Of a stretch of DNA of 64,000 nt, positions 17,604-51,846 are shown in pieces. The notes beneath the pieces were generated by a model, which was not told the origin of the DNA, made no database searches, and was given only the letters and a program-made list of their open reading frames with translations. The first letter of the stretch is position 1, and every line of letters begins with the position of its first letter. The position numbers were made by a program, and so were the translations under genes. Source of the DNA: an uncultured Flavobacterium sp. (GTDB lineage: Bacteria > Bacteroidota > Bacteroidia > Flavobacteriales > Flavobacteriaceae); assembly GCA_937773775.1 (NCBI GenBank), contig CALJVL010000019.1, forward strand, positions 40,862-104,861. Direction: 5' to 3'.

Positions 17604-18824
17604 ATGTTGAAAGTAATTTTTTATCTCAAAGCTGGAAAAGCTAACAAGAAGGGCGAATCTCCAATTTTTGCCCGCATCTCTTACAACCAACAGTCAATCA
17701 CAATGACTACTGGCAAATCAATTCTAAAAGAAAGGTGGAAGTTTACCAAAAACCTTCGAACGGTGCTTAGACTTGAAAAGGAAAAGGTGTTAAAACACAG
17801 TCTGGATCTTTTCCAATTGAATATCGAAAAGAAATTTAATGAGCTAACCAAGGTGACTTCTGATATTTCACTGGTACAGCTTAAAAATGAGTTTAACGGT
17901 AAAACCACTAGTCAAGTAAAAGGTTCAAGCATCGTAGAAATAATAGATAAGCACAATGCTTACTTTGAAAAAAAAGTAAACGCTGGAGAGCGCTCTAAAG
18001 CTTCCTTCAAAAAGTATGGACGTTCTAGGCAATTACTCGTCAACTTTATGAAACAGCAATACGGCGTCGAAGACCTTTCTTCAAATGAGATTTCCAGCGC
18101 TTTTGTTTATAATCTCGAATCATATCTAAAGTACGAAAGTAATTTTAAAGGAAAAGTAGGCATCAAAAATAACTCGATGGTAAAGTATATGAGAATGTAT
18201 AAAACTGCCTGTAATTACTGTATAAGAATGGGATTGATAGAGAAGAATCCATTTAATCTTTACGATGGAAAATTGAGTATCAAAGATGCTGTATTTTTAA
18301 CACAAAACGAATTAGATGGAATAGAGAATAAGAAATTTTCAGTGGAACGCTTGGAGCGTGTTAAGGATGTTTTCCTTTTTAGTTGCTACACTGGTTACGC
18401 CCCCATTGATGCCTCTAACCTTACGGAAAGTAATATATTTCAAGATAGTAGTGATGCACTTTGGATTATGACAAATAGGGCTAAAACAGCAATAAGAGCT
18501 AACGTCCCTATCCTTCCCCCTACCCTGAAGATTATTAATAAGTACAAACAGCTTCAAATTGGATTGATACCTAAGATATCCAATCAAAAAATGAATGCTT
18601 ATCTTAAAGAAATTGCTGATTTGTGTGGTATAACTAAAAATTTGACGTGGTATGTGGCCAGACATACGTTCGCAACTACGGTAACCTTAGGTAACGGTGT
18701 CAGGATAGAAAATGTTTCTTCAATGATGGGTCATACTAATATTAAACAGACACAGCATTATGCAAAAGTATTAGATGTAAACGTAATGGAAGACATGACC
18801 AAATTAAAGGTAAAATATATGTAA
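17604..18824 (+). CDS. int: Tyrosine site-specific integrase (Bacteroidota conjugative-transposon type)
   Basis: 406 aa with an N-terminal arm-binding-like domain. Catalytic-region motifs ARHTFATT and MMGHTNIKQTQHYAKV. Confidence 0.9.
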   Translation: MLKVIFYLKAGKANKKGESPIFARISYNQQSITMTTGKSILKERWKFTKNLRTVLRLEKEKVLKHSLDLFQLNIEKKFNELTKVTSDISLVQLKNEFNGKTTSQVKGSSIVEIIDKHNAYFEKKVNAGERSKASFKKYGRSRQLLVNFMKQQYGVEDLSSNEISSAFVYNLESYLKYESNFKGKVGIKNNSMVKYMRMYKTACNYCIRMGLIEKNPFNLYDGKLSIKDAVFLTQNELDGIENKKFSVERLERVKDVFLFSCYTGYAPIDASNLTESNIFQDSSDALWIMTNRAKTAIRANVPILPPTLKIINKYKQLQIGLIPKISNQKMNAYLKEIADLCGITKNLTWYVARHTFATTVTLGNGVRIENVSSMMGHTNIKQTQHYAKVLDVNVMEDMTKLKVKYM

Positions 18825-35689: not shown

Positions 35690-36677
35690 TTATCCTTTCA
35701 TCAATTGTTTTAAACGTCCTTGGTAAGACTGCCAATAATTTCTTTTCGTAGCATCGTTAAGGAAAGAAGCAGCTACCATTTTTTCTACCAGTTCTGACTG
35801 TGATAACATTAACTCCATGATATCATTAAAGTTTTTTTTCACTGATCCCTATCTGCTCAGCAAGGACAAAGAATTGTTGCCTTATCTTTCCTTGAGCTAA
35901 ATTTTTAGGCAATAGTCCATCATCCAACGCAAATTCTTTATCTTCAATGTGAATACGGCTATTCAACAGGTCGTATGCTGGACTTAGTCTATAATCTCCC
36001 ATAGCGGTTTCAAGCAAAGAAAAGTTTTTAAAGTGGGCATCTCCATTTGAAAATAGGTAATTGAACACCAATATTTTTAATAGCTTTGGTGCTTCCGGCT
36101 TATATGCAGGTAAATATTGCTTCATTAATTGAAATAACTCTAAATAGCTTCCTAAATACTTATAATGTTCTCCATAGGTTTGTGGTGTCCTTCCTGCCAA
36201 AGAGGCAAAATCATCTTGAGCCAGTTTTGTGCCGTCTTCTTTTACATCAAACCGTTTGGTTATGTAAGCAGGAGAACCATTCTTAAAAAATATTAATGCA
36301 TTTTCGGCTGTTTCTATTCCATAGACTTGACGGGCAATTTGCATAGTTAAATGCTCATTAGCGGGCATTTGGTCTAGTTTTTTACCCGCACCGGGAATGG
36401 GTTTCAGAATATAAGTACCAGGTTCTCCTTCATTAATAAGCCTTAACTTGTTTTTTTCAAGCACTACAGAAAATTTTTCCTGCACTCCTGAAATTGACAT
36501 ACGCTTGCGGTTTTCTTCAAAAAGTGCAGCTGCTTCAGGATTCGATGCCGGAGAATCGTAAGGCAATACGTGATTTACCTTTTTACCATGAAACACTCTG
36601 TTCAAACAGGTTCTACTATACGTATCAAAACCTTCAGCTAATGTACCCGGACAATATTTTATTTCAGGTAGACTCAT
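35690..36677 (-). pseudogene. HipA C-terminal-type Ser/Thr kinase toxin (HipT-like). As sequenced, the last ~50 codons are out of frame because of an A8 run.
   Basis: The ORF 35826-36677 has SISGVQEKFS (Gly-rich loop) and GDAHFKNFS (catalytic loop). Removing one base from the T8 run at 35832-35839 (A8 on the coding strand) continues it as ...GISEKNFNDIMELMLSQSELVEKMVAASFLNDATKRNYWQSYQGRLKQLMKG*, ending at 35690. Confidence 0.75.
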
Positions 36678-37003
36678 AACTCTTTTATTTTAATAACTCT
36701 AACAGCACCGATGCTGTCATTTTTTGCAGTAATCATCAGTAGTCCAAAATAATCGTCTCGATCAATTCTATTGTACTTACACACAACTTGTTTGTTAGGT
36801 CCCTCTGGTAGCATATTATAAAAAAATGGAAATAAGAATTCTGAATGAAACTCTTGTTCCTTTTTAGGCAAAGTAAGACTGATTCCTGGCTTAGTACGGT
36901 CTGCTGTCCAAGAATCACTATAGCGGAATGTAAATGATCCATTATCGTGTTGTGTCAATACACCCGCTTCTTCGTCCTTAAATAGTATTTTTGCTTTTCT
37001 CAT
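36674..37003 (-). CDS. HipA N-terminal-subdomain protein (HipS-like)
   Basis: 109 aa. EAGVLTQ...FTFRYSDSW...PFFYNMLPEGPNK...DSIGAVRV matches the HipA_N/coupling domain. It has 4-nt overlaps with both neighbours. Confidence 0.75.
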   Translation of the reverse strand: MRKAKILFKDEEAGVLTQHDNGSFTFRYSDSWTADRTKPGISLTLPKKEQEFHSEFLFPFFYNMLPEGPNKQVVCKYNRIDRDDYFGLLMITAKNDSIGAVRVIKIKEL

Positions 37004-38350: not shown

Positions 38351-38405
38351 AACGCTTTCATTAGTTACAGCTAGTTGTTGCATTGCCCGCGATTTAATAG
38401 TATAT
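38351..38405 (-). repeat. Degenerate copy of the inter-cassette element (possible distal end of the array)
   Basis: AACGCTTTCATTAGTTACAGCTAGTTGTTGC resembles the CTTTCATTGTT...TAGCTGTTAGTGGC tail of the element at 39389-39530, but its ends do not pair with 39379-39391. Confidence 0.3.
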
Positions 38406-38443
38406 TAACATTTAGTCCGGTAGTTATGATACGACTAATCTAA

Positions 38444-39373
38444 TTACCAATCTTCATACAAAAAACTTCCAATCTCTTTTGCTATTGAATGTTTTAGCTT
38501 AGCCATATATTCTAGACTAATACCTGGCAAAATCGCTTCTATTTCATTTAGTCTTAAATTATGGTTAACGAGTTTCTCACCATTTTCAAATTTATCGGTC
38601 ACAATTAGAGAAATAGATTGCTTTGTGCTTGAATCAATAGCAGATAGACCATTTTTGTTAAAATGTAAATCTTCTAAAGTTAGAATTAAAGCATTTGGCA
38701 AATCTTTTGATTCTTTGATTTCTTTATTGCCAGTAATAGGAATAAATACCCAAAGAGATTTACCTAGGTTTTGCATTATCCCCGTTGTATCGGGTCTTGC
38801 TGAACAAATTAGAATTTTTTTATTCCCATCATCTAAAATGAATAAACCATTTAATAAATGCTCAGATTGCTGTAAAAGAATTTTATGCTGATTTTCTTTT
38901 TCGTGAATTGTTGTAACTTCAAGAAACAAGGAATTAATCATATTTAGATTGTGCTTCAGGGCATTTATAAGTGTAACCCCCATAAGAACTCCTGCTTCTC
39001 TATGTGCGAACCTATTTCTCCATTCTTTGGCATCTAACCACTGTTGATGTAAATGTTTAGAACAATATTTTTCCAGACGATTAAGTTTAGAATGTAAACT
39101 TTCAAATCCTTCTTTCTTTTTAAGCCCTACAACTTCAAGTTTTAGTGTAACGCTTGCTTCAAATATTCGAGTCGATTTTGAAAATGCTTCATCCAGTAAA
39201 GCATAATGAAAATAACTATAAAACAGAAGCCTTTCAACAAGTTTATAATCATCCACAATTTCTTCTGGTACTAAACAATGGAATTTTCCTTTCAACACAA
39301 ATTTCTCGATAAAATCTGTTTCCGACTTCACATCAAAACTTTTCCAAATATTATCAGGTTGAAGATAATTCAT
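38444..39373 (-). CDS. Hypothetical protein with a HEPN-like R-x4-H motif (Abi-like?)
   Basis: 309 aa. It has WRNRFAHRE (RNxxAH, as in HEPN/Abi_2-type proteins) in a helical N-terminal half. The C-terminal half is unassigned. Confidence 0.4.
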   Translation of the reverse strand: MNYLQPDNIWKSFDVKSETDFIEKFVLKGKFHCLVPEEIVDDYKLVERLLFYSYFHYALLDEAFSKSTRIFEASVTLKLEVVGLKKKEGFESLHSKLNRLEKYCSKHLHQQWLDAKEWRNRFAHREAGVLMGVTLINALKHNLNMINSLFLEVTTIHEKENQHKILLQQSEHLLNGLFILDDGNKKILICSARPDTTGIMQNLGKSLWVFIPITGNKEIKESKDLPNALILTLEDLHFNKNGLSAIDSSTKQSISLIVTDKFENGEKLVNHNLRLNEIEAILPGISLEYMAKLKHSIAKEIGSFLYEDW

Positions 39374-39378
39374 CTTTT

Positions 39379-39536
39379 GTATTATATTAACATCCGTTTG
39401 TATAAAATATCTAAACGAACTATGTTTTTATTAATTTAAAAAGTAAATATATAGGACTTAAACTACCTCCAGCTCATTTCAACACACCTTTCATTGTTTG
39501 TGCTGCGAACGCAACGAAACTCTAGCTGTTAGTGGC
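39379..39536 (-). repeat. attC-like inter-cassette element (142 bp from AAC to GTT)
   Basis: AAC at 39389-39391 and GTT at 39528-39530. It is alignable with the element at 40211-40352 (shared TTATTAATT..AAGTAAATATA..TTAAACT.CCTC..TTCATTGTT..TAGCTGTT). Confidence 0.55.
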
Positions 39537-39551
39537 CGTTTTTCTTGGCGG

Positions 39552-40151
39552 TCAGTTAGTTTTTTTTATTAGAATTCCTTTGTCCACACTTTCGTTTAGT
39601 AAATTCTCTGCATAATTCCAAATTACAGACGAACCGTTTTTAATTGCTTTTTTCTTCTCATAAACTTTTTGATACGGCACATTAAATTCCGTCCAAGTTC
39701 CACCATGATCTGAAGTGTTTTGCAATAGTGGTTCAAATCTATCCATTGATTTTGAAAATTTTGCTTCGTCCGTACTACCTTCTTCAAATTCTTCCCAAAT
39801 TGCTATAAGTTCTTCGGCTTGTTCTGATGGTAAAAGTCCAAATATTCGCTTTGCGGCAATAAGTTCTTCTTCGGTATTTGTATGACTTTTTGTAGAATCG
39901 TAAATAAAAGTGTCACCCGCATCAATTTCCACGATATCGTGGATTAAAACCATTTTCAAAACTTTAAGTACGTCTATCGGTTTGTCCGAATGTTCTGCCA
40001 ATACAATTGTCATCATTGCTAAATGCCAACTATGTTCTGCATCATTTTCGTGTCTATCGCTGTTAAATAGTTTAGTTTTGCGTTGAATGTATTTCAACTT
40101 GTCTATCTCTTTTATGAAGCTTACTTGTTTTAATAAATTGTCTGTCTGCAT
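39552..40151 (-). CDS. HD-domain phosphohydrolase (YfbR-like 5'-deoxynucleotidase family)
   Basis: 199 aa with the motifs ENDAEHSWHLAMM and LIHDIVEIDAGD. Confidence 0.75.
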   Translation of the reverse strand: MQTDNLLKQVSFIKEIDKLKYIQRKTKLFNSDRHENDAEHSWHLAMMTIVLAEHSDKPIDVLKVLKMVLIHDIVEIDAGDTFIYDSTKSHTNTEEELIAAKRIFGLLPSEQAEELIAIWEEFEEGSTDEAKFSKSMDRFEPLLQNTSDHGGTWTEFNVPYQKVYEKKKAIKNGSSVIWNYAENLLNESVDKGILIKKTN

Positions 40152-40204
40152 ATTTCTATAATTATTGAAAGAATTTTACTGTCCGTATAATGTCGTTTAA
40201 AATT

Positions 40205-40363
40205 GCCACTAACGTCAGTTCGCATAAAAACCTTAAAACGATCTTTATTTTATTAATTAGGAAGTAAATATACAGAAATTAAACTGCCTCTAGTTTCCGT
40301 TCAACGCAGGCTTCATTGTTGGCTTTTCAAGCCCAACGAAGCCTTAGCTGTTGTAGGCAGTGC
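40205..40363 (-). repeat. attC-like inter-cassette element (142 bp from AAC to GTT)
   Basis: GCCACTAAC at 40205 is the exact reverse complement of GTTAGTGGC at 39528. There is a local hairpin AGGCTTCATTGTTGGC / GCCCAACGAAGCCT at 40308-40344. It ends GTTGTAGGCAGTGC at 40350. Confidence 0.55.
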
Positions 40364-40364
40364 T

Positions 40365-41264
40365 TTATTTGGATGATTTAAACTTCTTAATATTCGAAGC
40401 TTTCTGTTTTATCCATTGAATTGAAATAGCAACAGTTTCTGTAATATCCCCGGAAGAAGTATTGTGTCCTAATTTAGAAAACAAAGTATATTCGCAAGGT
40501 TTACCTTGAGCTTTCAATGTATTTAATTGCTCCATACACAACTTTACTGGAATCTGTATATCTTTCTCGCCAAAAAGCCAAAGTCCCGGAATTGAAAGAG
40601 TATTCAGAGAATTTTTTGGGTCAGTCGCCACGAATTGATACCTGTCTGGGTCATTTTTAGTATGTTCACGAGCATCTGCTTCTGTATGATTTTCCCAAAA
40701 ATTATTGTTGCCGTTAGTATAAAACTGAAATCGAAGTTGTTCTAGAGTTGTAATTGTAGGGCAACTAAATAAAACCATAAATTCTATTTGTGGATTTTTG
40801 CTTGCAGCAATTGGGATTATCCATCCTGCTTGACTGAAGCCAACTAATCCAATTGGTATTTTTTTATCTTTCAAATAGGTTCGAAATGTGTTTACTGCTG
40901 AACTTGCATCGTGAGATAATAAATTAAGATTAGTAGTGTCAATATTATTAGTACCAACAGATGGCCCTACATATACACCGCCCGATTCCCCAACTCCTCG
41001 TTTATCATATGTCAATACAGCAATACCTTCTTTGGCAAGACGTATTGCGAAGTCCATTTCTCTTTTTACAGGATCAGACCCGTGAACAATTACAACTGCT
41101 GCAACTGTTTTTTTAGGCGTTAAAATTGAGCCTGCAAGAGTGACGCCCTGACTTTCAAACTTTACATCTTGAGTAACAAAGTCGGCCGATTGACAAAATA
41201 CCATATCTGGTAAAGTGATTAATAATAACCAAAGAAATAAGTTCGAAAAAAAGCTAATGTTCAT
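40365..41264 (-). CDS. Secreted alpha/beta hydrolase
   Basis: 299 aa with a signal peptide, a nucleophile elbow GFSQAG, and a C-terminal LGHN histidine region. Confidence 0.7.
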   Translation of the reverse strand: MNISFFSNLFLWLLLITLPDMVFCQSADFVTQDVKFESQGVTLAGSILTPKKTVAAVVIVHGSDPVKREMDFAIRLAKEGIAVLTYDKRGVGESGGVYVGPSVGTNNIDTTNLNLLSHDASSAVNTFRTYLKDKKIPIGLVGFSQAGWIIPIAASKNPQIEFMVLFSCPTITTLEQLRFQFYTNGNNNFWENHTEADAREHTKNDPDRYQFVATDPKNSLNTLSIPGLWLFGEKDIQIPVKLCMEQLNTLKAQGKPCEYTLFSKLGHNTSSGDITETVAISIQWIKQKASNIKKFKSSK

Positions 41265-41304
41265 TTTGGTTTAATATAAAAAAAGTTTTGAATGGTCTGC
41301 GTTA

Positions 41305-41716
41305 GCATTGTCTACAACGTCAGTCTGTGAAAAAACCAGCGTTTTATTACGAACAAATATAACAAAATACTCGTGTAAAAAGAAGATTATTCTTATTTTA
41401 AAGAATGCAACACATCACCGTAATTCCCACCAACAATTGCCTTTTTCAAGTTTAGAAAAAGCAATACTTCCAGACTATCAAGTTCATTTTATAGACCCTT
41501 TTGTAGAATATATAGATTTCTCTACACTTAATTTTGCTATAAAAGCTCTAAAGACAGAAGCTCGCCCGGGTTTTAACTACCCAGTATTTCTTACGATCAA
41601 TAAATAGAACTATCATAACAGAGAATACTATTTCTTATCATTGAGATTATTTGATTAATTGATTTTGTCTTGAGGGCACAAGCGAAACGCTTGCGCCAGC
41701 AGGGGCTATGCACTAC
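41305..41716 (-). repeat. attC-like element disrupted by a truncated IS copy
   Basis: GCATTGTCTACAAC at 41305 pairs 12/14 with GTTGTAGGCAGTGC at 40350. The IS left end begins at 41321. The residual element tail (...GCGAAACGCTTGCGCCAGCAGGGGCTATGCACTAC) ends at 41716. Confidence 0.45.
41321..41607 (+). pseudogene. Truncated, frameshifted 5' fragment of an IS1182/IS5-like element (left IR plus about the first 70 transposase codons)
   Basis: CAGTCTGTGAAAAAACC is identical to the IRL of the intact copy at 48013. ORF 41308-41607 contains ...LPFSSLEKAILPDYQVHFIDPFVEYIDFSTLNF..EARPGF, compared with transposase LFFSSLEDTILPENPVRFIDAFVEALSLQTLGF..EGRPSF. Confidence 0.75.
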
Positions 41717-43874
41717 AAATACGGTAATATGAATTTAGTTTTTTGTTATAGTCAAAATTATACATTTTTATATATCTAATAAATGAAGTTTTGGGAAGTG
41801 AACTTTCTTCAAATTTACCTGCTAACTCTTCGGAATTAGTAATCCATGCATTTACATAGACTGCCATAGGAAGGTTTGGAATAGGTGTTGGCATCCATGT
41901 TTTTCTGACATGGATAATTTCATTGTCAACATACCATCTAATCTCATGATATTCCCACTCTATCCTATAATCGTGAAAATCTTCAGAGGCATCAAAACCT
42001 AAGTCTATTAATACTGGAGTACCTCTTAATCCAAAATTATATTTCGTATTTATGATACCAGGATTATAATAAACATTTAATAATATTTTAGTTGTATCAT
42101 GTCCTAAAAATTCAATGTCAATTTCTTGCCAAGGGTCATTTCTATGCAAGAAAAAAGCAGAAACAATACCTTCTCCTTTTATAGGCTTCATTGAAATTTC
42201 AAAACTGCCATAGATATATTTTTCTATAGAAACTATTGATGAAGATGAATATTTTTTGTCTCCTTGAACACTATTAGTTATTTCTAATTGAAATCCAGAA
42301 TCTAATTCATTAGATAGACTGAAATTTTCTTTTGAAAATTGAGATTGATTTGAAGGAAAAGTGTCTTCTAAAATGCCCCAAAAATTAACATCAAATTCTT
42401 CAAAGTAATCTATTCTATTTTCAACGTGTTTAGCAATTGGTATTATTTCATTTTTATTAAAATCATATGGTAAGTATTTTTTAATGTTTTCAATAGGTAG
42501 TACCCAAGGGTTAACATCATGTTCCAAATATTTGGAATCATTAGGAATACTTATTTGTATTACTTTTTCATTTATTTCGGTATTTATTTTTAGTATATTG
42601 TCACTATCAAGATCCCAATTTTTGATTTTAAGTAACTTTGAAATCTCCTTTGTAATATTTCTTTTAGGATTAACGCAAAATATATTTTTATCGATATATA
42701 AAGAGCAGGCTTGAGGAACTGAATCAGTATCCTTTGAAAGAATAATGATTATAACATTTGGATAAAAACTTATTAATGGTGGTATCATTTCAATTAATGA
42801 ATTAAACCCAATATATGCATCAAATAGTAATGGTTCTTTTTTATCAATCAAGTTCATTATGTGAACTAATTCTCTATCAGCTTTCATGAAATGAGTTCGA
42901 TAACTATTTAAACTTAATAGTATTTCAAGTTTCAAAAGATTTGATTTATTAGAACTTAAATCAAACATAAAAACAGGGTTACGACCTTTCAATTTATCTA
43001 AATCAATAAATGTTTTGTTAGATTTAACACCTATTTGCGATAAAATTGGAAGTATAGAATAATTATTATCTGAGGTTATAAAAAGTTTTTGACTAATTAT
43101 TGAGTCATTACATGTATAAACATCGAGCTCGTTAAATTTATGATTAATCCATAGGTCAACAGGGCCAGTTATTGGAAGTTTTTCTTGGAGTTTTCTTGCT
43201 CCTTTATTTGATAAGATATATCCTGAGAACCACCATATACCTCTATTAGGTATGGAAAGATTATTTGAAATTTTTGTTATGTCTGGGGTGTGTTCAACTT
43301 TTTTATACGAAAGATAAATAATGTCAAATTCAATTTTAGACTCAACAATTTCTTTCCATAATGAGTTTAATTTATTTGAGAATTTATTTTCAAAATAAAT
43401 ATCATCCTCCAAAATAAGTCCGCTATGTATATTTTCATCTATAATTTTATCCCAAATAGAAAGGTGGGATAATGCGACAGCGATTTCTTGTTTTGTAAGT
43501 TCAATAATTATTTCTTTTTCTCGAATAATATTTAATAATTCTGGATTTGGATCTACAAAATATTGGTCTTCTAATGTATAAGAAGAGTTGATTTTATTTG
43601 TCTTTATTGAATGATTTTTCGCATCAATAGCTGAGAATCTTTCTGTAAAACTTAGAAGGGTGTTTTTATTCGGAATCTTAATTTTCGTCAGTTCTTCTTG
43701 AATTAATCTCCATCTTTCTTTTTGCCTGTCAAGATTGATAATAAAAACCTTATTAATTTGATTTTCACCCTCACCAAATGTGTTTAATTTTTCTTGTTTT
43801 ATTAAAAATCTTAATATTTTTTTTAACCTATATTTTAGAAATAGAAAGTTACGATTGCCAGTTATTATATTCAT
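41706..43874 (-). CDS. Multidomain protein: GT25-like glycosyltransferase (N-terminus), unassigned middle region, GH16/concanavalin-like domain (C-terminus)
   Basis: 722 aa with no signal peptide. The N-terminus has VFIINLDRQKERW...LSHLSIWDKII...LILEDDIYF (GT25 style). The C-terminus has WQEIDIEFLG (GH16 ExDxE catalytic motif) and YRIEWEYHEIRWYVD. Confidence 0.6.
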   Translation of the reverse strand: MNIITGNRNFLFLKYRLKKILRFLIKQEKLNTFGEGENQINKVFIINLDRQKERWRLIQEELTKIKIPNKNTLLSFTERFSAIDAKNHSIKTNKINSSYTLEDQYFVDPNPELLNIIREKEIIIELTKQEIAVALSHLSIWDKIIDENIHSGLILEDDIYFENKFSNKLNSLWKEIVESKIEFDIIYLSYKKVEHTPDITKISNNLSIPNRGIWWFSGYILSNKGARKLQEKLPITGPVDLWINHKFNELDVYTCNDSIISQKLFITSDNNYSILPILSQIGVKSNKTFIDLDKLKGRNPVFMFDLSSNKSNLLKLEILLSLNSYRTHFMKADRELVHIMNLIDKKEPLLFDAYIGFNSLIEMIPPLISFYPNVIIIILSKDTDSVPQACSLYIDKNIFCVNPKRNITKEISKLLKIKNWDLDSDNILKINTEINEKVIQISIPNDSKYLEHDVNPWVLPIENIKKYLPYDFNKNEIIPIAKHVENRIDYFEEFDVNFWGILEDTFPSNQSQFSKENFSLSNELDSGFQLEITNSVQGDKKYSSSSIVSIEKYIYGSFEISMKPIKGEGIVSAFFLHRNDPWQEIDIEFLGHDTTKILLNVYYNPGIINTKYNFGLRGTPVLIDLGFDASEDFHDYRIEWEYHEIRWYVDNEIIHVRKTWMPTPIPNLPMAVYVNAWITNSEELAGKFEESSLPKTSFIRYIKMYNFDYNKKLNSYYRICSA

Positions 43875-43879
43875 ATTAA

Positions 43880-44695
43880 TTATTCCTTAAACCATTTGTT
43901 TTCATTTCCATTGTAGAGTCGCCAATTTCGATTGTCATACCGATAACTTAATGCCCAGACGCTTGTTGATATTGAATTCCAGTCGTCAATATACTCTACA
44001 TCATTCCCACCATTTATCAAATAATTAACCAAGGACGCACTAAGGTTTCCTGGCCCTGTAGTTGCTTGAATATCAAATATGTTTTCATTACTTACTAACT
44101 TATCAGTTGCTCTTTTAAGAGCAATAGCAATCAAGTGATGATTAGGAGGTGATATGATTGGATTATTATTGAAGTAATAGATATTTGTTTCGTCATATGG
44201 GCAATGTAAGAAATCTTTATTATCAACCATTTTTTCTTCTTTTAAGGAATAGCAGAGAGGTTGAATTTTAATGTTATTATTCTCAAATAGGAAATCAATT
44301 TCAGTATTTAAAATCAATTCATCTGAATCAGCATAAAATCCACCAGATACATATAAGTAACATAGTCTAAAATAATCACATCTCATTGCTGGGTGATGAC
44401 ATTTTAAATAGGAGTCTATATGTTCTTTTTTTAGATGTTTTTTTATAAAACATTTAGCAGATTCGTCATCAAAAAAATCAAACCTAAATCCTTTTTTTAT
44501 TAGGACTTTCCAACTTTCGATACATTCTAAAACATCCTTTGGTATCTCTTTTGACGAGTGCCAATATTGCATTATTACCTTAGGAATAGGAACCTTATTA
44601 GCTGTTATGATATTTTCTTTTTGTAGAAAATCATAAATGAATTTTGAACGAGCATCATCATCTTCAACTATTGACTGGGTATTTTTTTTATTCAT
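43880..44695 (-). CDS. GT32-like (DXD) glycosyltransferase
   Basis: 271 aa with no signal peptide. IPKVIMQYWHS...RCDYFRLCYLYVSGGFYADSDE is typical of the Gly_transf_sug/OCH1-type family. Confidence 0.6.
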   Translation of the reverse strand: MNKKNTQSIVEDDDARSKFIYDFLQKENIITANKVPIPKVIMQYWHSSKEIPKDVLECIESWKVLIKKGFRFDFFDDESAKCFIKKHLKKEHIDSYLKCHHPAMRCDYFRLCYLYVSGGFYADSDELILNTEIDFLFENNNIKIQPLCYSLKEEKMVDNKDFLHCPYDETNIYYFNNNPIISPPNHHLIAIALKRATDKLVSNENIFDIQATTGPGNLSASLVNYLINGGNDVEYIDDWNSISTSVWALSYRYDNRNWRLYNGNENKWFKE

Positions 44696-44789
44696 TTACA
44701 CTTATTGGTTATTACACATAATTGCATTATTTAAATAAAATCTAACTGCTAATATTTTAATTATTTTCAACTACGTCATTTAGGCACAA

Positions 44790-44923
44790 GTAGCATATAA
44801 CGATTTGCTGCTTTGAGATAGTGTGTGGTTCGTAACCTTTCAATTTTCGGCTTTGCAGAAAATTGATGCGAAACGATAATTCCACTAAATTCCAGCTAGC
44901 TCAAAGCTGTTATGCCTTCGTGC
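44790..44923 (-). repeat. attC-like inter-cassette element (113 bp from AAC to GTT), uninterrupted
   Basis: AAC at 44799-44801 and GTT at 44909-44911. The arms GCTTTGAGATAG (44810) and CTAGCTCAAAGC (44896) pair 11/12. The central hairpin TCAATTTTC (44840) / GAAAATTGA (44858) pairs 9/9. Confidence 0.6.
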
Positions 44924-44931
44924 TTTTTTTT

Positions 44932-46737
44932 CTATTTATACCATTCTTTTTTTAACTCTTCAAAATTCATTTCTTTCCATTCATTTTTCCATAATTCCCA
45001 ATATGGTATATCGTTTGATGAAGGCTGTGGACTACATCTGTCTATTGTGACGATTGAAGGCAAAATTATAGATTCGCCCACTAATAATGCGTCACCTTGT
45101 TTTAACGATGTCATTTTCTCAATTAATGAACCCAAAGAATCAGGTAATAATTTTTTAACATAACTTTGATCCACAGGATTTGTTAATCTCATCGCTATAA
45201 AATTGTTACATTGTGAAAAAATTGTTTCTGAGATCTCAGATGGTCTTTGGCTCGCAAGCATTAAAGTTACTCCGTATTTTCTTCCTTCTTTAGCAATCCG
45301 TTCGATAGACTTTTTAGATGAACGATACTTCACAAGTTCACTATTTGGAACGTATTTGTGAGCTTCTTCATAGACGAGTAGAATAGGGACATCATTATTG
45401 ATTTTTTCTAATGGATTTGTAGTACATCTCAGTCGTTTATAGAAATAGCCATGTTCAAAAATTAGTCTTGAAATTAAAGAAACGGTAATACTTAAAACTT
45501 CAAAAGGAACACCACTTAAATCAATAACAGTTATGTTTGATTTACTATCTGTTTTATAGCCTAAAAGATTTTTTAAAGTTTCCTCAAATGAAATTCCTTT
45601 AGCATCAGGACCAAATAAAAATGATAGTCGGTCTTGATTGATTTTCTCTTGAAACCTAACAAAAAACTTATCTAGTGTTCCTTCAGCATAATCTCCTTTA
45701 GTTATATTTTGATTTTTTGTTGGATGAAACTGAAATTCTTTTTCAAAATATTTAGATAGTTTTTCCTCTTCACTTAATAACACACCTGTATCAACAGTTG
45801 TACTGCTATCAGTGCAAGTATATGAGCCATCAATCAGCATATATCTGTTTGATGATTTTGAATTTTTTGTTTCATTTTTTAAGTTATACAATGCATTTTG
45901 AATTTCTGTAACATCAAAAAATAAAGGTGTGTCATAAAATACTTTAACATGTCCGGGGTTATGTTTCTTTTTATTTTCTGTAACCAATTTTCTAAAAACA
46001 GAAGATTGATTGTAATTATCTCTTTCACCTGTGTCCAAAAGAATTTCTTCAAGTTCTTCACTATTTAATAACCAATATGGTAACGCCAGATTCGTAATAT
46101 CTATGAAATTAGCATTTGGGAATGCAGATTTGTATTCTGAATGAATGTCAAAAATAATTACGTGTGAATTATTCAATGAAAAACTACCATCTTTTTCCGA
46201 TACAGCTTTTTGAATAATTGACGATAGTGTATGAGATTTACCAGAACCAGTTGAACCCACAATCGCAATATGTTTGTTGAAAAACTTATTTCCATTAACG
46301 GGTACTTTTACTGTAGGATTAGATGAAAGAGAAGAGAAGGTAAAACTCTCTTTTTCCTCTATTGATTCTTCATATATTTTTTTTATTTCATCAATTGTTG
46401 CAGGAAAAACACTTTTCGGCGGAATTGCAAGAGAATCACCTCCTCTTTCAAATTTACCATTCCTTAAAACTCCGAGAGGAAATGCTTCTATAATATGTTC
46501 TCTTACGTGTTTTATATCTCCATTTTCATCTTTTACGTCTCGAATTGAAATTTGAAAATTTTCAATAATTGCAATTAAACTTGCATTTTCGCTATCTTCA
46601 ATTTTTAAATATGAACCTACTTTCAATGTTTCATCAACATTTTTAAATATTTCCAAATCCTTTACTGTTATTTTAACCTTATCAGGAAACACTGCTATTA
46701 CTTGAGCATTTGGCTCTGTTGAATTTTCTGTACTCAT
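44932..46737 (-). CDS. HerA-like (DUF87/FtsK-HerA superfamily) ATPase of a DUF4297-HerA defence pair
   Basis: 601 aa with Walker A VGSTGSGKSHT and Walker B-like PILLVYEEAHKY. Its start overlaps the upstream gene's stop by 4 nt. Confidence 0.8.
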   Translation of the reverse strand: MSTENSTEPNAQVIAVFPDKVKITVKDLEIFKNVDETLKVGSYLKIEDSENASLIAIIENFQISIRDVKDENGDIKHVREHIIEAFPLGVLRNGKFERGGDSLAIPPKSVFPATIDEIKKIYEESIEEKESFTFSSLSSNPTVKVPVNGNKFFNKHIAIVGSTGSGKSHTLSSIIQKAVSEKDGSFSLNNSHVIIFDIHSEYKSAFPNANFIDITNLALPYWLLNSEELEEILLDTGERDNYNQSSVFRKLVTENKKKHNPGHVKVFYDTPLFFDVTEIQNALYNLKNETKNSKSSNRYMLIDGSYTCTDSSTTVDTGVLLSEEEKLSKYFEKEFQFHPTKNQNITKGDYAEGTLDKFFVRFQEKINQDRLSFLFGPDAKGISFEETLKNLLGYKTDSKSNITVIDLSGVPFEVLSITVSLISRLIFEHGYFYKRLRCTTNPLEKINNDVPILLVYEEAHKYVPNSELVKYRSSKKSIERIAKEGRKYGVTLMLASQRPSEISETIFSQCNNFIAMRLTNPVDQSYVKKLLPDSLGSLIEKMTSLKQGDALLVGESIILPSIVTIDRCSPQPSSNDIPYWELWKNEWKEMNFEELKKEWYK

Positions 46738-47966
46738 ACTATATTTTTAATAATATTTAGGTTTTCTACTTGAATTTTAACCTCTTTAACTGAACTTGAA
46801 CTATAATCAAAAAATATATTGTTCAAATAAAATTGATAAATTTCAGAACGTCTTCCAGTTATAGCTAGTGTTTCATCTAAGAAATCTATCTTATTTAGGA
46901 ATTTAAGTTTGATTGGATTAGAAAGGGCTGGTTTTTTTATTATCGATTTTGAATTAAAATTGGCTCCTTCAAAATCAAAACCATCAGAAATTATGATTTC
47001 ATCGTCTGTTAAGTCTTTTTTTAATTCTATTAATTCTAAATTATCAATTCCATGGATGTATATATAAGGGCAAAATGGAGTAGGTTGATTTATAATTTTT
47101 GCATAATTTTTAATTACTAAATTTAAGAGAGTTTTTAGATCACTTCTTGAATAGGATCTTGGATCTATTTCAAATAAGAAAAATCGTTCTTTAAATAATA
47201 TGTTCACGTTGCTAAAATATTCCTTTCTTAAATTAGAATAATGTGCTTTTTCTCCCTTTATTACCACATACCATTCATTAAATAATATTTTTGAATTATT
47301 TACACGTTTAAGAAACTCTCCTTTAGTAATGTTTCTATTTGATTGATTTGAGTCTTTTGAAATATCTCTTATAACTCTTAAAGCGCTGTTGTAAAAATAA
47401 AATTCAGATGTAAAGTCAGTACAGGTAAAGACCGTCTTAAATAGACTGATAATTTCTTTAAATTGTTTTTCAAATTCAAAAGCATGGATATCAATCTCAA
47501 GTAATCCGATGAATTCATTTAATTCGGCATCATTAAGTGTAAGCTCGTTATGATGAAGATGTTTTACTTTAGTTGGTACACTATTAATTTTTTCAGTTCG
47601 AGTATAAGTTAAAAAGTGGTCTTTAAGATTTTGTATATTTAAAGGTAATGACAATTTGGAATGACCTGATTTGTAGTAGCCTCTTAATTTGTATTTAATA
47701 GAAACTTGATTTCCTAATTTTACTTCTTTAAAATGATTTAGCATTAATCTGATTGGTTCAGCTATTACTGAGTGGTTGTATTCAGTTTTTTCATAGTACT
47801 TACATTGAATTGCTGTTGTTTCTGTAGCAGTCTTAATATCAATATCTTCTATCCCTTCAACTAAAATAGATTCGCTGTCATTTGATAGATTTAATAAAGA
47901 AAAAATTGAATAATCAAATTGATAAAAGTATCCTCGAATTGTGTCAATTGCTGTTCTGTCTGCCAT
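46734..47966 (-). CDS. DUF4297-like (Cap4-type PD-(D/E)xK nuclease N-domain) partner of HerA
   Basis: 410 aa. The N-terminal TIRGYFYQFDYSIFSLL...ILVEGIEDIDIK...TAIQCKYY fits the DUF4297 pattern (GY.YQ ... E..ED.D ... Q.K). Confidence 0.65.
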   Translation of the reverse strand: MADRTAIDTIRGYFYQFDYSIFSLLNLSNDSESILVEGIEDIDIKTATETTAIQCKYYEKTEYNHSVIAEPIRLMLNHFKEVKLGNQVSIKYKLRGYYKSGHSKLSLPLNIQNLKDHFLTYTRTEKINSVPTKVKHLHHNELTLNDAELNEFIGLLEIDIHAFEFEKQFKEIISLFKTVFTCTDFTSEFYFYNSALRVIRDISKDSNQSNRNITKGEFLKRVNNSKILFNEWYVVIKGEKAHYSNLRKEYFSNVNILFKERFFLFEIDPRSYSRSDLKTLLNLVIKNYAKIINQPTPFCPYIYIHGIDNLELIELKKDLTDDEIIISDGFDFEGANFNSKSIIKKPALSNPIKLKFLNKIDFLDETLAITGRRSEIYQFYLNNIFFDYSSSSVKEVKIQVENLNIIKNIV

Positions 47967-47996
47967 TTTATTTTATCGTGTTTGTTGTCATTCGTA

Positions 47997-48012
47997 GCAT
48001 GAGGCATAACGT
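47997..48012 (-). repeat. Left stub of an attC-like element split by the IS
   Basis: In GCATGAGGCATAACGT, AGGCATAAC (48002) is the exact reverse complement of GTTATGCCT (44909). Confidence 0.55.
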
Positions 48013-49732
48013 CAGTCTGTGAAAAAACCGTCGTTATGTTCTTTCAAATATAATGTATATTTCGAATATTAAAGCAAGAAAAGTTGTATATTTAATGATG
48101 CAACACATCACAGGAACTCCTCGCAATCAGCTATTTTTTTCTAGTTTAGAAGACACTATTTTACCGGAAAACCCCGTTCGTTTTATCGATGCTTTTGTCG
48201 AAGCATTGTCATTACAAACTTTAGGTTTTTCTGTTCAAACCATTAAAGGGGAAGGTCGCCCTAGCTTTGATACTAAAATCTTTCTTAAAATCTATTTGTA
48301 TGGTTATCTAAATGGGCTGCGTAGCTCAAGAAAGCTAGAAAAGGAGTGCGCTCGCAATAACGAATTGCAATGGCTTTTATGTGCAATCATACCCAACTAC
48401 CATAGTATATCCGACTTTAGAAAACAAAATCCATTGGGATTAAAAAAACTCTTTAAACTCTTTGTTTCTTTCCTTAAAGATGCTGACCTAATTGGCTGTG
48501 AAATCATCGCTATTGACGGCACAAAAAGCAGAGCGCACAACAGTAAGAAAGCAAACTTCAACCAAAAGAAAATAGAGAGACACTTAGCGTATATTGAAGA
48601 GCGAACCCAAGAATATCTTGCCGAATTGGCTAAGAATGATCTACAGGATAATAGCATTGCAATCACAAAGATTGCAGAAAAAATAGAACGATTAAAAAAG
48701 AATAAAATACGCTACGAACTTCTAGAAGACAAACTAAAAGAGAGTGGACAACCCCAAATAAGTACCACCGATCAAGATGCGAGAGCCCTTTTAGTTCAAG
48801 GAGTAGTAGTTGAGATAAGCTATAATATCCAAGCAGCAGTGGATAATAAGCATAATTTAGTTGTGGCTACTCACACCATAAATCGGAACGATCTTAACGC
48901 CTTAGGAGCTATCGCTTTGGAAGCAAAGGAAAATTTGGGACTAGATACTTTTACTGTTTTGGTGGATAAAGGCTACCATAATGGAAGGGAAATCGCCCAA
49001 TGCATAAACCATAACATCAGCACCATTGTAGCGCATCCTACGCCAGGAACAAGCAAAGAAAGCGTTACGCAACCCGATTACTTGGTAGCCAAATTTAAAT
49101 ACGATGCAGAAAACGACAGCTATACGTGTCCCCAAGGAGAAACTTTAAAAACTACAGGAAGGTGGCATAAAAAAAGTGGGCGAACAGAGCAAAGTAGTTA
49201 TCAATTTAAAAAATACCGAACCCCAGCCTGCCGGGAATGTCTTGTAAAACATCTTTGTACTGCTAGACCAGCAGGGCGGGAAATCGATCGGAGCCAGTAC
49301 GCGCAAGCTGTTGAAGAAAACAACAAACGCTATCAGGAAAACCCACAATTATACCGAACACGACAAGAGATAAACGAACATATATTCGGTACTATAAAAA
49401 GACAATGGGGTTATAATCACACTAATTTAACGGGACTAGAAAAAGTAAACGGAGAACACAGCTTAATTATGCTGGTTTATAACATCAAACGCAGTATCAA
49501 TATACTGGGCGTTCCTGATCTGATTGCCAAACTCAAAAAATGGAACACACCTTACAGAGTACAAGTCTTGCTTTTGCTAAAAACGGAGTATTTAAAGCGA
49601 ACTAACGCCCTTGATTATTATCTAATGAAATTAGTAGCCTAAAAAAAGAGCCTTCTTAAAAGGCTTTATTTGACTTGTAGAACAGGAAAATTGAAGCTTT
49701 TTAATGGAAAAAGGAGGTTTTTTCACAGCCTG
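48013..49732 (+). mobile_element. Intact IS1182/IS5-like insertion sequence (1720 bp) with 17-bp terminal inverted repeats and a 4-bp ACGT duplication
   Basis: IRL CAGTCTGTGAAAAAACC (48013-48029) and IRR GGTTTTTTCACAGCCTG (49716-49732) match 16/17. ACGT flanks both ends (48009-48012 and 49733-49736). Confidence 0.8.
48095..49642 (+). CDS. IS1182/IS5-like DDE transposase
   Basis: The start at MMQHITGTPRNQLFF is preferred. It has a DUF772-like N-terminus (LEDTILPENPVRFIDAFVE), a Cys cluster (YTCPQGE...ACRECLVKHLC) and a C-terminal FGTIKRQWGYNHTNLTGLEKVNGEHSLIMLVYNIKR. Confidence 0.8.
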   Translation: MMQHITGTPRNQLFFSSLEDTILPENPVRFIDAFVEALSLQTLGFSVQTIKGEGRPSFDTKIFLKIYLYGYLNGLRSSRKLEKECARNNELQWLLCAIIPNYHSISDFRKQNPLGLKKLFKLFVSFLKDADLIGCEIIAIDGTKSRAHNSKKANFNQKKIERHLAYIEERTQEYLAELAKNDLQDNSIAITKIAEKIERLKKNKIRYELLEDKLKESGQPQISTTDQDARALLVQGVVVEISYNIQAAVDNKHNLVVATHTINRNDLNALGAIALEAKENLGLDTFTVLVDKGYHNGREIAQCINHNISTIVAHPTPGTSKESVTQPDYLVAKFKYDAENDSYTCPQGETLKTTGRWHKKSGRTEQSSYQFKKYRTPACRECLVKHLCTARPAGREIDRSQYAQAVEENNKRYQENPQLYRTRQEINEHIFGTIKRQWGYNHTNLTGLEKVNGEHSLIMLVYNIKRSINILGVPDLIAKLKKWNTPYRVQVLLLLKTEYLKRTNALDYYLMKLVA

Positions 49733-49858
49733 ACGTTATGCTGCTTTGAGATGGCTGGAAAATCGTAACCGTTCAATTTTCGGCTTAACGTAAACTTGCT
49801 GCGAAACGGTAATTCCACTAAATTCCAGCTATATCAAAACAGCGGTTGGCAACTGTGC
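49733..49858 (-). repeat. Right part of the attC-like element split by the IS (about 116 bp once the IS and one ACGT are removed)
   Basis: TATGCTGCTTTGAGATGGCTGG ... CCAGCTATATCAAAACAGCGGTT. It is homologous to the 44799-44911 element and ends GTTGGCAACTGTGC at 49845. Confidence 0.55.
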
Positions 49859-49870
49859 TTTCATATATAT

Positions 49871-51043
49871 TTATTCAAATTTCAATTCTTTCCTAAATCT
49901 GATTTTTTCTTCAATATCTTTTCTTGTATAATTTTTAAACTGGTCTATTAATTTTGGTAAAAAATTTTCGAAATTTGGATATTTTTCTCGATTGTTTTCA
50001 TATTCCTCCAATAGTTTTTCCGCATCTGGGATTAGTATAAAACCTTTGTCAACAACATTATCTTTACGCATTTCTTCCAAGTCTTTAATGTCTAATTTTT
50101 TGGAGATCCGTATTGATGCCACTCGCACCATATGTTCATTTACAAAACCCCACCAATGTCCATAACTCTGTTTTTCCATTATTGAATCAAGTTCAGGGAC
50201 AAATAGTGAATCGGTTTGGTTTATTCTTTCTTGATATTTTTTTTGCTCAATAATTGGTGTTATAAATGAATGGCAAAATTCATGGGCAACCAAATCACGA
50301 TAATAAGCATCCGAACCTTTTCCCGAATAACCAAATTCTTTGTAATCTGTTAAATTTTCGTTCCAATGAATATCACTTGCAGGTGATATAATTTGATATA
50401 ATATTTTACCCTTTCCAGTTCCAACATTTGCACCAAAGCCCATGCCAAAAGGGGAAATGGGAATAATTATTAGATTGTAATGAGGATTAGATTGCCCAAA
50501 ATACGTTTCCATTATTGGGATTAAATTTTTGTCTAAATGTGATGTCGCTTCTACTATTGCTCCTTGATAAAATTGGTGGTATTTTTTTAAGAAGCCCTCG
50601 ACATTAGCTGTATCATAAAAGTGTTTTAAAACTTTTAGATAAGCTTTTAACTCTGGCTCGTTTTTTTTCCAATATGGATTAAGTCCATACTTTAAATTCG
50701 TTTTGGGAAGTTCATTCGAATAAAGTAATCCTTGAAGTATTAAATCACCAGTCATAGATGTCTCCGCTAAGATTTCTTGTGTATTTTTAACGGCAACATC
50801 ATTTTTGAAATTTTTAAAATATTCCCTTGCTGCATAAATCAATGGTTTTGCTTTGTAGTCAGCTTTTCTATATTTAAATAATGGGTCGCTATCGGATAAT
50901 GACCTTAATATCATAAAAGTCTCTATTGTTTTATTAGTAACGACTTCTATTTCTTTCTGTTCTACATTATTTCTTTCTGTTTTTTTGTTTTGACCATAAG
51001 AAAGAAGTGAAAAAGTAAATAATAAAAAATATAATTTGTTCAT
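49871..51043 (-). CDS. Secreted HExxH protein, putative zinc metallopeptidase
   Basis: 390 aa with signal peptide MNKLYFLLFTFSLLSYGQ. LVAHEFCHSF is the only recognisable motif. Confidence 0.5.
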   Translation of the reverse strand: MNKLYFLLFTFSLLSYGQNKKTERNNVEQKEIEVVTNKTIETFMILRSLSDSDPLFKYRKADYKAKPLIYAAREYFKNFKNDVAVKNTQEILAETSMTGDLILQGLLYSNELPKTNLKYGLNPYWKKNEPELKAYLKVLKHFYDTANVEGFLKKYHQFYQGAIVEATSHLDKNLIPIMETYFGQSNPHYNLIIIPISPFGMGFGANVGTGKGKILYQIISPASDIHWNENLTDYKEFGYSGKGSDAYYRDLVAHEFCHSFITPIIEQKKYQERINQTDSLFVPELDSIMEKQSYGHWWGFVNEHMVRVASIRISKKLDIKDLEEMRKDNVVDKGFILIPDAEKLLEEYENNREKYPNFENFLPKLIDQFKNYTRKDIEEKIRFRKELKFE

Positions 51044-51059
51044 TCGGATAGATTTTTTT

Positions 51060-51073
51060 GCATTGTTGCCAAC
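51060..51073 (-). repeat. Proximal boundary of the first cassette
   Basis: GCATTGTTGCCAAC pairs 12/14 with GTTGGCAACTGTGC at 49845. The sequence beyond it (51074-51603) is unlike the other inter-cassette elements. Confidence 0.5.
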
Positions 51074-51560
51074 TAATATATAACATCAAGAAGTAAAGTT
51101 TTTTTTTAAGTTTTACCATAAATTAAGCTATATATCCTAGTTCGTAAATAAAGGCTTTTTTAACTATTGTTACAATACCCACTTTTAGTGATATTGACAA
51201 AAATGTAATAAGTAAAAGTATTCCGTAATAATTTTAATTCGTAGCGGGCTTTCACGAAAATAAAACTCATAAAAATGCCCTCAATAAGTGTCTAACTTTT
51301 TGGGGCAGTCTATCCTAGCATCTTTTATTATTTCTTTCGTCTATCCTTCCAACTATAATTAAAATGCCTATTTCTTAAACGCTCATATAACCTTCCTCTC
51401 AGATAAAGACCTAAAACCTATATTACAATTAACCCTTTAATTTCATACCACTTCATTGGCTGTATTCTTAAATTAAAAGAATGCAATAAATGATTTTGTA
51501 TTTTAGTATGCTATGCAATTCAGGAATTTAGATATGCAATATGAGAGCATTAATAAAAAT

Positions 51561-51603: not shown

Positions 51604-51846
51604 TTACTCAAATAACATTCTAATATCTACTTTTAAAGCTGTAGCAATTTTCATAAGAGTTTTAACCGTTGGATTACTTTCTCCCCTCTCTATTCTACCA
51701 ACTTGATTCTCGGATAAACCAATTTCTATAGCTAACTTGGATTGAGAAAAATCTGTTGTTTCTTCTCTAATCCTTCTTATGGTAGCACCAAGGGTAACCA
51801 GTACCTTATATTGTTCATCTTTTATCACTGTATAAAATTCCGTCAT
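51604..51846 (-). CDS. XRE-family helix-turn-helix transcriptional regulator
   Basis: 80 aa. SQSKLAIEIGLSENQVGRIERGESNPTVKTLMKIATAL. Confidence 0.8.
   Translation of the reverse strand: MTEFYTVIKDEQYKVLVTLGATIRRIREETTDFSQSKLAIEIGLSENQVGRIERGESNPTVKTLMKIATALKVDIRMLFE

Follow-up and report, generated by a model that had tools for sequence, protein, structure and literature searches.

In a 64,000-nucleotide (nt) stretch of DNA from an uncultured Flavobacterium sp. (the window), the segment at 39.39–51.07 kb holds five minus-strand units set between elements that run from AAC to GTT, and its sequence makes it very probable that this segment is a five-cassette array, without a recombinase gene, of an integron-like system of Flavobacteriaceae. 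Each cassette consists of one or a few open reading frames (ORFs) followed, 3′ on the coding strand, by a site of ~115–140 nt that begins ...N6-AAC, finishes GTT-N6... (N6 being specific to the cassette) and forms a single long imperfect hairpin. In related chromosomes, the platform has the order recombinase gene, attI-like site and cassettes, all on one strand, and between genomes only the recombinase–attI segment and an insertion sequence (IS) are common, the cassettes being all different. Loci of relatives that were fetched for comparison carry L-numbers (for example, L034).

As a first-pass annotation of the same DNA had reported, the genes at 38.4–51.1 kb are eight in number and all on the minus strand (ORFs at 38444–51043); one IS transposase gene (48053–49642) lies among them on the plus strand. 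The eight products, as identified with Pfam and PADLOC, are an unknown 309-aa protein, an HD_3 phosphohydrolase, an alpha/beta hydrolase, a GT25–GH16 fusion, a DXD glycosyltransferase, HerA, DUF4297 and DUF4932. Read along the gene strand (that is, the minus strand, on which all of the following lie unless stated otherwise), the array starts with an attI-core-like sequence at 51071–51082 (TATATATTAG|TT), and cassette 1 begins at the TT (51072). Cassette 1 (48010–51072) carries the DUF4932 ORF (49871–51043; Pfam DUF4932, 1.2e-32) and the type-1 site E5 (48008–49847), which is split between its AAC and GTT by an IS1182-family IS (48011–49734, plus strand). Cassette 2 (44801–48009) carries the ORFs of DUF4297 (46734–47966) and HerA (44932–46737) together with an intact type-1 site, E4 (44799–44911). 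Cassette 3 (41318–44800) holds the glycosyltransferase (43880–44695) and GT25–GH16 fusion (41706–43874) genes, both assigned by Pfam, and a decayed site, E3 (41316–41705). The alpha/beta hydrolase gene (40365–41264; Pfam Hydrolase_4) and the composite junction E2 (40211–40352) make up cassette 4 (40213–41317), and the HD-domain phosphohydrolase gene (39552–40151; Pfam HD_3, 3.5e-54) and the composite junction E1 (39389–39530) make up cassette 5, the last (39391–40212). The AT-richness first noticed for several units is borne out, with a G+C of 0.28–0.35 in the cassettes against 0.36–0.37 in the flanks. The further claim that the cargo is enriched for defence functions is not supported, as PADLOC matches two of the eight array proteins, DUF4297 (4.7e-166) and HerA (3.1e-294), a known defence pair that together counts as one system.

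The two ends of a cassette are complementary to each other in a way that is particular to that cassette. The ends of cassette 1, GTTGGCAAC and GTTGCCAAC, pair at nine of nine positions (12 of 14 over a longer stretch), those of cassette 2, GTTATGCCT and AGGCATAAC, at nine of nine, those of cassette 4 at 12 of 14 (five of six in the N6) and those of cassette 5 at nine of nine; the ends of the glycosyltransferase cassette (cassette 3) pair at 8 of 12 positions only. These strings and match counts (9/9, 12/14, 9/9, 12/14 and a weak glycosyltransferase pair) had been quoted in the first-pass annotation, and all of them lie where it had put them. At the five predicted boundaries, the N6 are complementary at 6/6 positions three times and at 5/6 once. 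For comparison, perfect 6-nt complementarity occurs in 33 of the 57,612 GTT...AAC pairs that lie 0.5–3.5 kb apart in the window (5.7e-4). Family-wide, when the N6 after the left GTT was set against the N6 before the right AAC in 77 distinct cassettes lying between consecutive elements, 51 were complementary at 6/6 positions and 10 at 5/6, versus 1.9% with shuffled partners; both chance rates are well below what is observed, and the complementarity noticed by inspection of the window thus exceeds chance. The complementary 6-mers vary from cassette to cassette, and the pairing spans a whole gene, not one element. Past 9 bp it follows a fixed pattern, namely two mismatches and then 3–4 further pairs (TGCT/AGCA or TTTT/AAAA). 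Such cassette-specific end pairing would be the scar expected of circles that had been closed through their own site and opened at GTT.

The type-1 elements themselves have the properties of structured sites. E4 and E5 (the latter with the IS removed) are 81% identical. Folded as they stand in the array, each gives a long imperfect hairpin (z = −4.2); if the two ends of the cassette to which a site belongs are brought together, as they would be in a circle, a single hairpin takes in the site and its end box alike (z = −6.4 for E4 and −5.9 for E5). The covariance model R1, which detects type-1 elements, scores E5 at 84.5 bits and E4 at 72 bits, with the plus strand far above the minus strand; it leaves the site of cassette 3 (E3) unmatched and finds no further match in the 64 kb. 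Copies of either element type away from gene boundaries were looked for, as the first-pass annotation had proposed, and neither type has a further copy in the 64 kb; when viral contigs were scanned for exact patterns of the two types, no match came up either. A large sample of elements from other genomes was obtained by using 73 distinct copies of the IS as a probe, and R1 has 172 matches in 668 kb of Flavobacteriaceae DNA, outlining a family of ~115–140 nt whose members stand in arrays at a spacing of ~0.5–3 kb, nearly all on one strand. The longest ORF is antisense to the R1 model strand in 72 of 83 cassettes, and the median cassette is 894 bp long.

The stem of this family covaries strongly. 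In an alignment of 41 elements, a stem of ~19 bp has compensatory changes in 17 of 19 pairs; counted as a stem of ~20 bp, it shows covariation in 20 of 22 pairs, and the AAC and GTT triplets hardly vary. An alignment of 150 elements has 95% of its cells paired and a covariation of 0.707, versus 0.196 for shuffled and 0.07–0.12 for slid partners; this larger alignment was fitted to the model, and the slid-partner control is unaffected by that fit. The spacing between core triplet and stem, as read by eye from the alignment, is 5–6 nt on one side versus 1 nt on the other. Of the description of these elements as non-canonical long sites, it is this spacing that stands and the length that does not, the length range of attC sites covering 113–142 nt.

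In the relatives, the arrays are headed by a recombinase gene. In L023, L034, L042, L053, L030 and L054, the first cassette is directly preceded, on its own strand, by the gene for a tyrosine recombinase of 347 aa. Three further recombinase loci were picked through the protein alone, independently of the elements; among the loci so picked, that of F. omnivorum (L085/L086) has at least seven sites right after the recombinase gene that of F. galactosidilyticum (L083/L084) has one, and that of F. algoritolerans (L081) has none. Right after the recombinase stop codon lies a conserved attI-like site, composed of an inverted repeat, a spacer, an inverted repeat and TATATAC(A/T)AG|TT, followed by the cassette-specific N6. 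Since no element precedes the first ORF at the proximal end of an array and the distal end closes with an element, each element goes with the ORF that precedes it in coding-strand direction; as none of the 84 cassettes of different genomes that were compared was shared, this partnership of gene and element was settled from the array ends and from the contig L087 discussed below. In the window, the pattern TATATA[CT][AT]AGTT has a single occurrence, at 51071–51082, exactly at the start of cassette 1, and in TATATATTAG|TT 9 of the 11 nt left of the crossover agree with the attI-like core of L085; upstream of 51071–51082 there are neither inverted-repeat arms nor a recombinase gene. The statement that the window holds no integrase is accordingly right for an array-type recombinase and wrong in general, as a CTnDOT-type integrase is encoded at 17604–18824.

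By Pfam, the array recombinase of the relatives has a Phage_integrase and a Phage_int_SAM_4 domain, and with NCBIfam models it scores 209.6 bits for the XerA/"integron integrase" model (cut-off 220), 200.3 bits for the integron integrase TIGR02249 (cut-off 265) and 127.4 bits for PRK15417 (cut-off 435). It aligns continuously with XerA (PDB 5hxy); its alignment with VchIntIA/IntI4 (PDB 2a3v) falls into two blocks and shows 18 residues in the place of the 60 of IntI, so that the IntI-specific I2 insertion is missing. The catalytic R-K-H-R-H-Y residues are conserved, an extra domain of ~75 aa is present at the N terminus, and public records name the protein XerD, integrase or tyrosine recombinase, never integron integrase. 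We regard the array recombinase as nearest to XerA and IntI, yet as no IntI; the IntI-type enzyme that had been expected for such arrays is not what the relatives carry. In L023 (10156–12208), the recombinase gene has next to it, on the upstream side, genes for a LexA-like repressor (helix-turn-helix (HTH) and peptidase S24) and for a DNA polymerase of the Y family, a neighbourhood that hints at stress/SOS control as in integrons; this pair is not present at the other platforms examined.

Much of this anatomy would also suit an ordinary integron remnant, that is, a clustered set of attC sites that has no integrase (CALIN), with canonical attC sites and a classical IntI encoded elsewhere, which is the best-surviving alternative and one that we consider unlikely. 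The AAC/GTT core triplets fit, including the adjacent purine/pyrimidine (GTTR/YAAC), the imperfect hairpins, the ORF-then-site order and the one-way arrays are as in integrons, and the sites fall inside the attC length range. The enzyme and the spacers do not fit: the recombinase at the array heads stays below both integron-integrase cut-offs (TIGR02249, 200 versus 265; PRK15417, 127 versus 435) and is without the IntI-specific insertion (18 versus 60 residues), and the triplet–stem spacing of 5–6 nt versus 1 nt is not the roughly symmetric unpaired spacer of attC. With regard to hosts, one review names Bacteroidota among the integron-bearing phyla (PMC8618304), whereas surveys report them as almost without integrons: the RefSeq-wide survey with IntegronFinder 2.0 lists for Bacteroidetes a single integron, in Salinibacter, and otherwise no more than In0 elements, which have an integrase but no cassettes (PMC9024848), and a 2024 study cites Bacteroidota among the clades found without integrons (10.1101/2024.07.02.601686). 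Given these surveys, the arrays described here seem to escape the attC model.

Single cassettes are found in new contexts among relatives, a variation that the first-pass annotation had named as informative. On a Joint Genome Institute (JGI) metagenome contig (L087), the DUF4932 cassette recurs at 94.6% identity over 1270 nt; the shared sequence has its first base exactly at the G of GTT and extends ~50 nt into the downstream site that belongs to the cassette, and what lies upstream of the cassette is the attI-core-like sequence in the window versus another cassette's type-1 site in L087. Homologues of the hydrolase with 87–89% amino-acid identity stand in the arrays of L034 and L042; in F. 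petrolei (L034), the hydrolase is the seventh cassette of an array headed by the recombinase, and the E2-type terminal hairpin lies behind the gene there too. Exact-protein look-ups with the HD and DUF4932 proteins returned only the source contig (ENA ERZ8135773 contig_46, 107.5 kb, to part of which the window is the reverse complement) and small contigs of one run.

By analogy with integrons, and from the scars in the sequence, we envision a free cassette as a circle whose site would be closed by the pairing of its own two ends. The tyrosine recombinase would then exchange strands at the GTT/AAC triplet, with either the attI-like site beside the recombinase gene or another cassette site as partner, and each inserted cassette would keep its complementary ends. 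The earlier proposal, in which each unit had existed as a circle with its own site as the closure and had entered by crossover at G/TT, draws support from the end pairing across the family, the covarying stem, the array heads with their recombinase and attI-like site, and the break of the DUF4932 homology at GTT.

The sites are themselves the target of other mobile DNA. The transposase of the IS at 48011–49734 matches NCBIfam IS1182 (NF033551) at 322.5 bits (cut-off 270), and the IS has terminal inverted repeats of 26 nt that are 96% complementary. In species-representative genomes, its relatives are almost all in Flavobacterium, Chryseobacterium and related genera. The 73 copies are flanked by AAC on the left in 69 cases and by GTT, GTC or GGT on the right in 71; 65 of them are located in a type-1 element detected by R1, where they occupy the position seen in the window, and the orientation is the same for 72. 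We take this IS1182-family IS to be a dedicated parasite of this site family. In one metagenome-assembled genome (MAG; JAUCBW010000001.1, 0.89–1.15 Mb), 10 of the 11 fetched IS copies (L056–L066) each lie inside a cassette site, over ~260 kb; the sites there are longer (~200 nt), and the region may be one very large array or several arrays. Elsewhere, several sites have their GTT end replaced by an insert that starts TGTGTGCCCTGCATGAGCAGGACACAC and is followed by a repeated 75-aa ORF (L046 ~5170, L048 ~350 and ~4420, L054 ~7720; MAG OZ253527.1).

A different mobile element, of the IS91 family, encodes a 286-aa Xer/IntI-like tyrosine recombinase and a Y2 HUH transposase and lies exactly after the terminal GTT of type-1 sites (L013 7780–10165 and 10908–13293; also L055, L031, L079 and L044). 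It ends in a 53-nt hairpin that covaries with the element lineage, followed by CTAGCTGTT, which mimics the site's own end. An Rfam scan of this IS91-like unit gave no match, and the idea that its 3′ end is a group II intron was dropped because the unit has ORFs for a tyrosine recombinase and for a Y2 transposase of the IS91 type.

Insertions of both kinds would account for the decayed junctions of the window. In sequence, E4 and E5 are intact (E5 being IS-split), and E1, E2 and E3 are decayed. In E3, an IS1182-like fragment follows straight after the AAC (41316–41508 is 69% identical to the left end of the IS), and no recognisable stem is left; the segment at 41316–41610 is a truncated, diverged second IS1182-like copy with a 99-aa ORF remnant (41308–41607). 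As this second copy occupies the same AAC position of a different site, the two insertions are independent. The type-2 elements, E1 and E2, are a true 142-nt repeat that does not fold end to end: E1 is not above shuffles, and E2 has a hairpin in its last ~55 nt only. Each is a composite of AAC with 19 nt resembling an IS1182 end, ~65 nt without relatives and a 53-nt hairpin (39476–39530 in E1); the left 88 nt have no relatives in any fetched locus, and the hairpin is homologous to the 3′ end of the IS91-family element, its nine other copies all being at such ends. We regard type 2 as junctions decayed by IS1182- and IS91-family insertions and not as a second kind of site. Of the two element types first distinguished, the type-1 hairpin sites and the reality of the type-2 repeat are thus retained, and the rank of type 2 as a site is not; the stable hairpins sought in both are found in type 1 (z from −4.2 to −6.4), in E2 for the last ~55 nt alone and in E1 not at all above shuffles. 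The last 55 nt of type 2 do look like R″-L″-L′-R′, and the reading of type 2 as a second, short canonical attC was rejected because the nine other copies are IS91-family 3′ ends and covary with that lineage.

The same observations raise the question of whether the boundaries are a by-product of these IS, that is, whether IS1182- and IS91-family elements moved adjacent genes and left their ends behind, which we hold to be very unlikely. Three of the five junctions in the window do contain IS-derived sequence, IS91-family elements can mobilise flanking DNA, and two type-2 composites behind different genes are not explained by recombination alone. Type-1 elements, however, are the target of the IS and not its ends, since uninterrupted copies are common and the IS sits at one fixed position; the IS ends have no sequence in common with the type-1 stem, and neither DDE nor HUH transposition yields end complementarity or an attI junction. 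A still smaller chance attaches to ordinary intergenic repeats (repetitive extragenic palindromes (REPs) and the related bacterial interspersed mosaic elements, miniature inverted-repeat transposable elements, or terminators) whose complementary ends would be coincidental or part of the repeat. Palindromic intergenic elements of ~115–140 nt that are abundant in a genus and targeted by IS, as REPs are, invite such a reading; set against it, the end 6-mers are unit-specific and pair across a whole gene, the elements (in the window and the fetched loci) occur only in one-way arrays that adjoin a recombinase gene and an attI-like site, a cassette changes context with a break at GTT, and no HUH gene of the REP-associated tyrosine transposase type was seen at the arrays.

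In the surroundings of the array, the window carries a conjugative element. A tRNA-Ser gene (17255–17342), the sole Rfam match in the window, is followed by the CTnDOT-type tyrosine integrase gene (17604–18824; Pfam/profile search), conjugation (tra) genes at 19–33 kb, including TraG (27528–30014), and a HipA toxin module (35826–37003) with an adjoining small HTH gene; on the other side of the array lie a small Xre-like gene (51604–51846) and, from 52385 onward, SusC/SusD genes. A search for the right end of the element, in the form of a second copy of either the 3′ end of tRNA-Ser or the sequence that follows, gave nothing above chance, and a location of the array inside the CTnDOT-like conjugative element is plausible. 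At the distal end, the six units first counted become five cassettes and a flank (38401–39393, minus strand): the 309-aa ORF (38444–39373) is not bounded like a cassette, has no inverted partner and no R1 element at its borders, has no relatives in the fetched loci or in a metagenome protein search, and is a flank, not a regular cassette. It is bracketed by an 11-nt direct repeat, TATATTAACAT, found solely at 38401–38411 and 39383–39393 (0.16 expected per strand), which suggests that this ORF was inserted at a GTT-centred site without a hairpin element. Accretion by double-strand site-specific recombination, through the integrase of the conjugative element or through Xer/dif modules as in Acinetobacter plasmids, would draw on the CTnDOT-type integrase (17604–18824) and tra genes in the same window and on the Xer-like nature of the array recombinase of relatives, but is scarcely credible, as the junctions have only GTT in common and no core with direct repeats, the two ends of a unit are complementary in inverted orientation, with a covarying hairpin of >100 nt between them, the boundaries are elements of 113–142 nt in one orientation with no 28-bp XerC/XerD-type sites in alternating orientation seen, and no repeat of the tRNA-Ser end bounds the units.

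Several observations weigh against an integron-like array of this kind. The window is without an array-type recombinase and comes from a metagenome contig, and three of its five sites are decayed. The link between recombinase and array is one of adjacency in the sequence. In F. algoritolerans (L081), the recombinase has no array and its attI is truncated, and L020 has a 39%-identical relative of the recombinase on the opposite strand with no clear junction seen. The AlphaFold model of the recombinase is poor (mean predicted local distance difference test score of 61), its catalytic domain falling below 50 in long stretches; the parts modelled with confidence are the N-terminal ~60 residues (beta-beta-alpha-beta-beta-alpha) and the SAM-like domain. 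Finally, one stem position is a C.A mismatch and another a G.T pair; each strand thus bears one of each, and the strand used is not readable from the sequence; a strand call from the conserved G.T pair was dropped for this reason, given the conserved C.A. The attI-like site of L081 (11044–11110) breaks off behind the first of its inverted repeats; phage-like genes come next, on the opposite strand, and a prophage possibly disrupted this platform, which has no cassettes.

With three of the five sites decayed, current activity of the array is doubtful, and, as the recombinase gene is also absent, the array is probably a block of cargo that is by now mostly frozen, either within a CTnDOT-like conjugative element or beside one. 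Mobilisation of cassettes 1 and 2 could still be possible with the recombinase provided in trans.

A wider reading, for and against which we see the case as evenly balanced, is that this array belongs to a widespread gene-capture system of Flavobacteriaceae whose recombinase never gained, or has lost, I2 and yet appears to act on folded hairpin sites. The system would then have arisen independently or would be an early form of the integron that has survived; it would have site-specific IS parasites of its own, and some copies, such as the one in this window, would travel on conjugative elements. Full-text searches of one library found no description of these arrays, and the system appears not to have been described previously. 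Two papers hold that integron integrases gained single-strand recombination by acquiring the I2 helix (PMC7790495, PMC4792948). If the wider reading is true, a cassette system with covarying hairpin sites, an attI-like site and an Xer-like recombinase without I2 would challenge both this I2-based view and the view of Bacteroidota as nearly free of integrons, and the evolution of structure-specific recombination could be tested on a natural case. Current integron finders would then be missing a whole class, and mobile cassettes, defence systems among them, would form a large and so far hidden pool in a family of environmental and aquaculture relevance, for which arrays in or beside a conjugative element would be a route for spread.

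Compared with known systems, these arrays are closest in layout to integrons, with which they share a cassette made of ORF(s) and a downstream folded site, the AAC/GTT triplets and cassette-specific complementary ends, one-way arrays of unrelated and mostly unknown genes (the median cassette here being ~0.9 kb), an array start, in the relatives, at an att site beside a tyrosine recombinase gene, arrays that differ wholly between related genomes, and recombinase-less arrays on mobile DNA. They differ in that the recombinase here is without the I2 insertion that defines an IntI, below both NCBIfam integron-integrase cut-offs and fitted with an extra N-terminal domain, its gene is co-oriented with the cassettes, each site is a single long stem with asymmetric spacers (5–6 versus 1 nt), and the hosts are Flavobacteriaceae, in which integrons are reported to be essentially absent. 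In integrons of the Treponema denticola type, the integrase gene likewise lies upstream of and co-oriented with the cassette array, and the arrangement of a recombinase gene on the same strand as the array is thus shared; that type, by contrast, has an IntI with an extra domain and sites called by attC models, neither of which is shown here.

The parasites of the sites also have counterparts. IS1111-attC elements insert at a fixed position and in a fixed orientation in cassette recombination sites, and group IIC-attC introns insert at one position and orientation in cassette sites (PMC3001079). The IS1182-family IS at AAC|GTT and the IS91-family element after the terminal GTT behave alike in this respect, but they are a DDE element (IS1182) and an HUH Y2 element with a tyrosine recombinase partner (IS91), and their target is another family of sites. 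With regard to the recombinase, precedents without the I2 insertion exist in the CTX phage, for which Xer recombinases act on a folded single strand, and in the pdif modules of Acinetobacter, which are mobile gene modules bounded by 28-bp XerC/XerD sites in alternating orientation. The array system resembles these in having an Xer-type tyrosine recombinase without the I2 insertion, together with a presumed action on a folded single strand (as in CTX) or with mobile modules (as in pdif). Whereas the CTX and pdif sites mimic the 28-bp dif site and use the housekeeping XerC/D, the system described here has a dedicated recombinase gene together with an attI-like site and with arrays of hairpin sites that are >100 nt long.

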